Source: Candidatus Colwellbacteria bacterium
Lineage (GTDB): Bacteria > Patescibacteriota > Minisyncoccia > UBA6257 > Colwellbacteraceae
Length of the DNA stretch: 64,000 nucleotides
Direction: 5' to 3'
Assembly (NCBI GenBank): GCA_016176505.1
Contig: JACOXB010000010.1
Location: forward strand, 27,021 to 91,020
Under the pieces are notes generated by a model. It had not been told where the DNA came from, ran no database searches, and saw only the letters and a program-made list of their open reading frames with translations. The position numbers were made by a program, and so were the translations under genes. Of the stretch, positions 23,401 through 23,489 are shown piece by piece; the first letter of the stretch is position 1; every line of letters begins with the position of its first letter.

Positions 23401-23489
23401 GAGCCGCGTGGCGAGCCAGGCCCCGCGTAGCAGGGTGGCGGAGCAGCGTGCGAGCGAGAATAATTTGTTTGGGCTGGAGAGCGTTGGCG
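23401..23489. repeat. Conserved ~90-bp GCGAGCC-rich element, copy 1 (GAGCCGCGTGGCGAGCCAGGCCCCGCGTAGCAGGGTGGCGGAGCAGCGTGCGAGCGAGAA…GTTGGCG)
   Basis: About 85% identical to 46225..46315. It contains the array's GAGCGAGCC motif just 5' (CCCGAGCGAGCCGCG). A GGTATAAAT -10-like box sits immediately upstream (23383-23391). Confidence 0.7.

Follow-up and report, generated by a model that had tools for sequence, protein, structure and literature searches.

The 64-kb window analysed here (64,000 nucleotides of contig JACOXB010000010.1, from a Candidatus Colwellbacteria genome; all unprefixed positions are those of the window) carries on its plus strand two copies of a non-coding repeat that we call type A: copy 1, at 23401-23489, lies between a TIGR-tasA locus and dnaJ, and copy 2, at 46225-46315, between a KH-domain gene and trmD. 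An initial annotation had described this repeat as a ~90-bp element in two copies, with a small RNA, a leader and a miniature mobile element as candidate identities. Both copies are present where it placed them; the ~90-bp extent, however, fits only the conserved centre of the repeat, the real unit being a hairpin of 166-169 nt that occupies 23343..23508 at copy 1 and 46165..46333 at copy 2.

Copy 1 closes an inserted island. In relatives with an 86%-identical DnaJ (contigs L166-L173) tRNA-Lys and dnaJ are ~40 nt apart, against 3.25 kb here, and backbone homology with one of them, L166, stops at 20252 and resumes at 23508, the last base of the copy 1 hairpin; the TIGR-tasA locus is therefore a 3.25-kb insertion (20253..23507, plus strand), with copy 1 as its last 166 nt and exact right end, 3 nt from the dnaJ stop codon (23511-23513). 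At the left end of the island neither a direct repeat of tRNA-Lys of the att type nor a second copy of the element was detected, and both candidates were rejected. The island encodes, on the plus strand, an open reading frame (ORF) at 20387-21313 that lacks any Pfam match. Its product matches TasR 9mty (E 1.3e-13) as well as TasH chains (E 7.9e-9) and contains no nuclease domain, and is therefore a TasA-type protein; it corresponds to HYS89_02175 of a Candidatus Colwellbacteria metagenome-assembled genome (one database source). Downstream of tasA are 42 TIGR units, all exactly 36 nt long, arranged as one unit at 21359, 31 units at 21538-22662 and 10 units at 22775-23143, with the edge repeat RAGCGAGYC and the loop repeat RAGAAACCC; this matches the dual-repeat TIGR architecture as previously defined (PMC12045711). 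The locus (20387-23143) falls into three transcription-unit-like blocks, each closed by a terminator hairpin, and units 21970 and 22847 carry near-identical spacer pairs (GTCCTCTGA/AAGTTCGGC and ATCCTCTGA/AAGTTCGGC, respectively).

Copy 1 follows 200 nt past the last array and begins, as had been pointed out, with the array's own edge repeat, GAGCGAGCC. Between the last TIGR terminator and copy 1 is a palindrome-rich spacer (23198..23322, plus strand; GGTACGTAC.TATTTACGTAAATAA ... TGCTCAGTAGCATGCTACTGAGCA), within which a short-read contig, L004 (window 20220-23280), ends at 23280. On the dnaJ strand a U-rich tract, UGUUAUUGUUUUUAUU, lies 3' of copy 1; copy 2 has no U-tract on either strand.

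Copy 2 stands alone and carries no cargo. From the KH stop codon to the trmD ATG there are ~60 nt in the relatives L086 and L162 (73-83% nucleotide identity), most of them occupied by a terminator-like hairpin, against ~240 nt in the window, where the ~200 extra nucleotides consist of the hairpin element and a 27-mer region. Given the short gap in these relatives, copy 2 is therefore an insertion without cargo, placed between the terminator of the KH gene and the start of trmD, and its original description as an intergenic insert is upheld by the syntenic comparison. The terminator that had been assigned to it does exist, as a hairpin with a T-run at 46340..46373 (no strand assigned), but it belongs to the backbone rather than the element: it is the conserved terminator of the rpsP-KH unit, found at the same position in relatives that lack the element. 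Directly 5' of copy 2, and part of the insertion, is an AT-rich 27-mer, TAGTATTATGTATATCGTATTAAGTAT (46140..46166, plus strand), whose sole other copy in the window is, as first noted, at 4572-4598 (88.9% identity over 27 nt); its 13-mer core occurs twice in the window, against 0.04 expected. The copy at 4572-4598 precedes a rod-like hairpin of 130 nt (4613-4742; z -4.5; closing stem ATGTCCCGC/GCGGGACAT) that has no Rfam match, and the 27-mer with its hairpin may constitute a recurring module, or else a promoter with a non-coding RNA.

Hairpin anatomy and family

Over the coordinates of the initial annotation the two copies are 81% identical (78 of 96 alignment columns), and identity reaches 92.4% in a 66-nt core (23401-23466 versus 46225-46289). 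They share a 30-nt stretch without mismatch, a 26-mer of which occurs exactly twice in the window (0.00 expected from 100 shuffles). Homology extends over ~145 nt (23346-23489 versus 46177-46313), which a gapped local alignment resolves into 23363-23489 versus 46187-46313 plus an upstream TCCCTCGT block. The repeat is not a fragment of a protein-coding gene, as a 1-nt indel puts the copies in different frames and the peptide of a 45-amino-acid ORF within it has no database relative at E <= 10. Nor are the copies the template and variable repeats of a diversity-generating retroelement, since the differences between them (substitutions G/A, C/A, C/T and T/G, and an indel) are not confined to adenines and neither copy lies in a gene. 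A known RNA family was likewise rejected: only tRNAs pass the Rfam gathering thresholds in the window, and permissive scans of both loci returned terminator-driven noise.

Inverted repeats of 17-19 bp enclose each copy (23343-23360/23491-23508 and 46165-46184/46314-46333), so that the unit is an imperfect palindrome of 166-169 nt, delimited by its fold and helix map. Full-length copy 1 folds as a rod of -72.4 kcal/mol (z -4.11 on the plus and -5.21 on the minus strand) and full-length copy 2 as a rod of -63.9 kcal/mol (z -4.37 and -6.70). Pieces of 90-110 nt taken alone fold no better than shuffled sequence (z +0.5, +0.9, -0.5 and -0.1), and the bare repeat was accordingly rejected as a folding unit: the structure needs its flanking arms. 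Each rod combines AT-rich arms (33-46% GC) with a 64-nt, GC-rich centre that is G-skewed on the plus strand, located at 23395..23458 in copy 1 (78% GC; words AGCGAGCC, GGCGAGCC and GCGAGCGAG) and at 46219..46282 in copy 2 (69% GC; words AATGAGCC, AGCGAGCC, GGCGAGCA and GCGAGTGAG). The centres, which contain apical mini-hairpins at 23420-23436 and 46244-46260, are 89% identical between copies; the arms are 56% and 52% identical, with complementarity kept. Near the base is a 6-bp box whose AAC and GTT are invariant in the family described below. In copy 1 its left half, GCCAAC (23364..23369), pairs with GTTGGC (23483..23488), and in copy 2 GCTAAC (46188..46193) pairs with GTTGGC (46307..46312) through one U.G pair, all on the plus strand by the helix map and basal alignment. 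The extended -10-like sequence that had been noticed before copy 1, GGTATAAAT, sits within the left hairpin arm; copy 2 reads TCAGAAAAT in its place, so it is not conserved.

While type A is indeed present twice, the family is larger, with a diverged third member in the window. This single type B hairpin (28634..28838, plus strand; 205 nt, z -2.35) abuts the recR stop codon. A short-word search linked it to copy 1 through two 11-mers of the arms, AACATCTCGGA and TGGAGAGCGTT, at 28660 and 28807. Its counterpart in L162 (L162:2915-3107; 88% identity; z -3.35 there) occupies a non-orthologous site; the syntenic backbone of the two genomes is 73-83% identical. Type B forms the right terminus of a second island, 27926-28836, with the junction at 28837, located between grpE and recR, where relatives have an intergenic gap of 54 nt and the window one of 962 nt. 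This island is GC-rich and contains a minus-strand ORF of 134 amino acids (28005-28409) that has no Pfam family; TTGACAATTCGG precedes this ORF as it does tasA and the TIGR arrays. L162 has a 1.4-kb island flanked by an inverted, centre-deleted mini-B (1494-1574) and by a full type B at the rnc stop codon, and L086 has no island at that rnc-adjacent site. The window's own island at the rnc site shares its leader with the L162 island (82% identity) and differs in cargo. Furthermore, the palindrome-rich spacer before copy 1 matches L162:2832-2901, just before the type B hairpin of L162 (87% over 39 nt, 93% over 30 nt). The shared spacers and leaders make these islands related small cassettes, each with its own cargo.

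What types A and B have in common is confined to the base of the hairpin, namely an outer stem, a 3/2-nt internal loop, the 6-bp box (in the variants GCCAAC/GTTGGC, GCTAAC/GTTGGC and GAGAAC/GTTCTT) and a short second helix. In an alignment of the arms of five members, from two subfamilies and two genomes, with the centres replaced by a GAAA linker, 85.4% of cells are paired and 17 of 26 pairs have changed on both sides, values that none of 500 shuffles reach; sliding the partners by 1-3 columns lowers pairing to 37-60%. The three AAC/GTT pairs (alignment columns 23-46, 24-45 and 25-44) are invariant in all five members. The basal pairs comprise 106 Watson-Crick, 11 G.U and 6 A.C pairs and, being nearly all Watson-Crick, can therefore form on either strand; at full length, type B gains 10-15 kcal/mol in stability when folded as the plus strand, a preference that type A lacks. 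The centre of type A is not significantly homologous to that of type B or to the tRNA-Glu-linked hairpin introduced below, and homology with either was rejected. The hairpin base is thus structure-conserved across types A and B by compensatory change, and the centre is type-specific and, as mini-B demonstrates, deletable. A covariance model of the base recovered only mini-B and generic terminators, among them 46340-46373, and did not bridge the long centres.

TIGR edge-repeat words outside the arrays

The centre of type A repeats the GCGAGC words of the arrays, as the initial annotation had observed, and this enrichment survives dinucleotide shuffling. Copies 1 and 2 together contain six GCGAGY words, against 0.85 in dinucleotide shuffles (0/2000 reaching the count). 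They are, moreover, the only places in the window outside the arrays where the exact 8-mer AGCGAGYC occurs on the plus strand, and the only ones with at least three GCGAGY words per 80 nt. When copies 1 and 2, type B and a tRNA-Glu-linked hairpin (35264-35422) are taken as four structured elements, they contain seven AGCGAG words against 0.9 in shuffles (0/2000); these elements make up 1.2% of the window and hold 7 of its 27 plus-strand, non-array AGCGAG words and none of the 25 on the minus strand. We regard the enrichment as real. Such edge-repeat words outside arrays are previously undescribed.

The words do not, however, make up an array unit. No 36-nt register of edge, spacer, loop and spacer fits the element, its edge-like words being 12, 27 and 36-39 nt apart by eye, and the loop repeat is matched at 4-5 of 9 positions. 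Next to the 80 related TasA loci examined (41-54% identity), most of them with 36-nt arrays whose edge repeat contains AGCGAGC, no such element was detected, only edge matches of 11-13 nt, and the presence of an analogous element beside these loci was rejected. We also rejected the element as a target of the TIGR system, spacer matches being at chance level: allowing three mismatches, the 42 local tigRNAs have 11 matches in the window, as expected by chance and none in the element, and 650 tigRNAs of related loci yielded one match against 0.9 expected.

The tRNA-Glu-linked hairpin, ~160 nt long, adjoins tRNA-Glu (35162-35237), a gene inverted relative to L162, and has no Rfam match. Its start is the exact reverse complement of the tRNA T-arm and its end a direct copy of the tRNA 3' end. 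The core, GGGAAGGGGTCGGGAAACGGTAGTTTCCCGTG, is 91% identical to an element at L086:12300-12420 that lies 3' of a different tRNA, with both ends matching that tRNA, and the window copy contains an extra insert, AGCGAGCGAAGCGAGTGCCAGAAACC, of TIGR edge-like and loop-like words.

Interpretation of the hairpin element

Of the three identities first proposed, the miniature mobile element is the best supported. Both type A copies have terminal inverted repeats and are absent from the orthologous sites of 75-86%-identical relatives (KH-trmD in L086 and L162, tRNA-Lys/dnaJ in L166-L173), members of the family occupy non-orthologous positions, and hairpins mark island junctions: they lie exactly at the right-hand junctions of the TIGR-tasA and 134-amino-acid-ORF islands and at both ends of the L162 island, abutting the 3' end of a host gene in each case. 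Because the hairpins stand exactly at junctions, come and go among relatives, occupy different sites in two genomes (type B), can do without their centre and have a covarying base with an invariant AAC/GTT box, we favour an element that works at the DNA level. Specifically, we consider it about an even chance that type A belongs to a lineage-specific family (~100-205 bp) of quasi-palindromic, non-coding hairpins, similar to miniature inverted-repeat transposable elements (MITEs) or attC sites, that bound small cassettes. Small cassettes acquired horizontally would have such hairpins as their ends or recombination sites; a recombinase or transposase encoded elsewhere would recognise the folded base with its invariant AAC and GTT, and cassettes as well as solo hairpins would be inserted downstream of host genes through the hairpin site. 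As a side effect, the rod may serve as a terminator or insulator between convergent units, as at copy 1, where it is followed by the U-rich tract on the dnaJ strand.

Several observations weigh against this reading. Neither copy has a target-site duplication (flanks AATAACA|...|CCCTATT at copy 1 and TTAAGT|...|TTCAAA at copy 2), and no transposase or recombinase was identified, in a window not fully searched for an integrase. The 64 kb covered, of a 93-kb contig, contain only two type A copies and one of type B, no type A copy was found in ~150 kb of closely related genomes (73-86% identical), and a 20-mer from the core had no match in the genome, metagenome and viral collections. Those collections do not include the source genome itself, whose proteins appear only in short Logan contigs. 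Two other islands, at 33.8-35.1 kb and 51.0-52.2 kb, have no full A or B hairpin, so that not every island is associated with such a hairpin. Between copies 1 and 2 conservation is much higher in the centre than in the arms, which is not what a role purely as DNA end would lead one to expect and suggests a sequence-specific function of the centre; the 27-mer precedes copy 2 and another hairpin in the manner of a promoter; and the family sample amounts to five sequences from two genomes. Searches with three further patterns in viral contigs and blastn against phage records were also negative.

Comparison with described elements places the hairpins among familiar kinds without matching any. The Correia elements of Neisseria and the enterobacterial ERIC/IRU sequences are palindromic non-coding repeats that can act as terminators or RNase III substrates when transcribed, and attC sites and the ends of IS200/IS605-type elements or MITEs are folded hairpins recognised by a recombinase or transposase. 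Like MITEs, Correia and ERIC/IRU, which are non-coding units of 100-170 bp with terminal inverted repeats that form long hairpins, type A lies between genes near gene ends and varies in presence among relatives; at 166 and 169 nt it is below the 300-bp limit for such elements. It differs from them in showing no high copy number in the 64 kb, in family conservation that is concentrated in the internal AAC/GTT box and the centre rather than at the extreme termini, in the position of family members at the ends of cargo-bearing islands and in the missing target duplication, on account of which it is not a canonical MITE.

The likeness to attC lies in an imperfect palindrome that varies in length and, across the family, conserves only the bases of a basal AAC...GTT box (R''/R'), with a second short helix and then a variable centre beyond it. 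In orientation, too, a small cassette has the hairpin at its 3' end and reads from ORF to AAC...GTT. Type A agrees with RYYYAAC at six of seven positions (AGCCAAC and AGCTAAC) and GTTGGCG with GTTRRRY at five of seven, whereas the AGAGAAC and GTTCTTG of type B fit the attC consensus at AAC and GTT only. Unlike attC, the hairpins have an additional 17-19-bp outer stem outside the box, and island junctions fall ~20 nt outside GTT, beyond the whole hairpin, instead of at G|TT. The hairpins are also singly dispersed (at 23.4, 28.7 and 46.2 kb, 5-18 kb apart) without a cassette array, the flanking copies in L162 are inverted, and no intI or attI was seen in the incompletely searched window. Because of the junctions beyond an extra stem, the misfit of type B to RYYY/RRRY and the lack of a cassette array, types A and B are not canonical attC sites. 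IS200/IS605 elements have subterminal hairpins of ~20-30 nt, no classical terminal inverted repeats and no target duplication. In these palindrome-associated elements, as proposed here, the ends are hairpins recognised as folded single strands, and target duplication is absent in both; the type A and B hairpins, in contrast, measure 100-200 nt and have no tnpA or tnpB nearby. With tigRNA units (PMC12045711; bioRxiv 10.64898/2026.09.09.750476) type A has in common the AGCGAGYC word and an AG-N3-CC loop-like word and, with stem-loop tigRNAs, the enclosure of the unit by a palindromic stem. It lacks the 36-nt register and the two 9-nt spacers bracketed by box C/D, its stem encloses ~130 nt rather than ~36 nt, and it is missing from the 80 TasA loci. 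Taken together, types A and B appear to be a new family within a well-known class of mobile or recombination elements, not a demonstrated small-RNA gene.

The serious rival is a structured small RNA, by virtue of the conservation of the centre and the recurrence of the 27-mer before hairpin 4613-4742. A plus-strand transcript would start from the 27-mer region, the AT-rich stem would be a processing stalk (for RNase III, for example), the GC-rich centre would be the functional part, and the position at island edges would reflect carriage as cargo. Well-conserved centres between diverged yet compensated arms are what a functional RNA carried on a structural stem would show, and the G-rich plus strand, the better plus-strand fold of full-length type B and the terminator downstream of copy 2 point the same way. 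However, that terminator is the one conserved for KH, copy 1 has neither the 27-mer nor a plus-strand terminator, the putative -10 is not conserved, the centre is dispensable and unrelated between types A and B, the basal pairs of type A show no strand preference, no Rfam family matches and the element is not conserved in relatives. We regard this RNA reading as possible, though rather less than probable. The small plus-strand transcription unit seen by the initial annotation in copy 2 is not demonstrated by these features or by the fold of its 90-nt repeat (z +0.5/+0.9), and a leader is not supported, the arrays and their terminator being upstream of copy 1. From sequence alone, then, the 90-bp repeat should not be annotated as a small-RNA gene.

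By analogy with solitary CRISPR repeat units, the centre could instead be a TIGR-linked RNA: TasA would bind or process its spacer-less edge-repeat words, which stand beside a loop-like word, and the RNA would serve as an orphan guide, a decoy guide, a regulator or an accessory RNA. The start of copy 1 with an exact edge repeat so soon after the last array, the excess of GCGAGY words, the confinement of plus-strand AGCGAGYC outside arrays to the two copies and the strand bias of the four structured elements argue for it. Yet, as copies 1 and 2 are homologous, their words are not independent events, and no canonical unit fits the centre, the loop match is partial, related TasA loci with the same edge repeat have no such element and no spacer of this locus or its relatives matches it. 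The original TIGR study, too, found no accessory RNA (PMC12045711, Discussion), and we think such a role unlikely. An inert duplication, copied once and drifting without function or mobility, agrees with the finding of only two type A copies in all searches and with a divergence of 10-45%. Drift would not, however, keep arms complementary through indels and double substitutions, place copies exactly at insertion junctions or yield a second subfamily with the same basal architecture in another genome. Furthermore, while Logan contigs from the trmD side stop at 46264, as two copies predict, contigs from the KH side (L174 and L176, at least two runs) end at 46248 and 46252, within the 30-nt stretch common to both copies; breaks at these points are not accounted for by two copies alone and, by assembly-graph logic, suggest further copies or variants in the source samples. 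Decay is accordingly disfavoured and in our judgement very improbable. Together with the end of L004 at 23280, the contig ends in the repeat core suggest that the source community contains further instances or variants of these modules.

If the reading of the hairpins as cassette ends holds, it gives a concrete starting point for understanding how the strongly reduced genomes of the candidate phyla radiation (CPR) acquire small accessory cassettes: the proposed route would run through an AAC/GTT-box hairpin at the end of a cassette, just past host genes, with TIGR-TasA aboard one of the cassettes. The interest of the element is mostly in this tie to TIGR-TasA mobility in a CPR genome and in the edge-repeat words. 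A bolder version, to which we give little credence, would make the hairpins folded-strand recombination sites of a so far undescribed, integron-like CPR cassette system that moves tiny promoter-cargo-terminator islands, TIGR-tasA among them; the type A centre would then be a TasA-recognised module that couples TasA to the capture or retention of cassettes, or a decoy or seed of arrays. If true, this would bear on how TIGR loci move and how their arrays arise.

Further insertions in the window

At 33815-35140 and 50991-52170 the window has two further insertions of raised GC content (55-61%, the window as a whole having 47%), which are absent or different in relatives; the second is the rnc-site island whose leader is shared with L162. 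Both contain minus-strand ORFs and have terminator hairpins of their own, and AT-rich palindromes in the 34.3-kb region are common to the spacer of L162.

Near rnc, the backbone sequence GGGCCACCCCCTTACCTCAAC / GCCCTCGCCCCTGGCTCAAC (L086:5160-5190; L162:1490-1515; window 52200-52225, minus strand) resembles the type B arm GGGCGAACCCCATCTCCTCAAGAAC and is present both in the window and in L086, where the site is otherwise empty. The rnc-adjacent site may thus hold a half-site or footprint of type B, or may be its birthplace.

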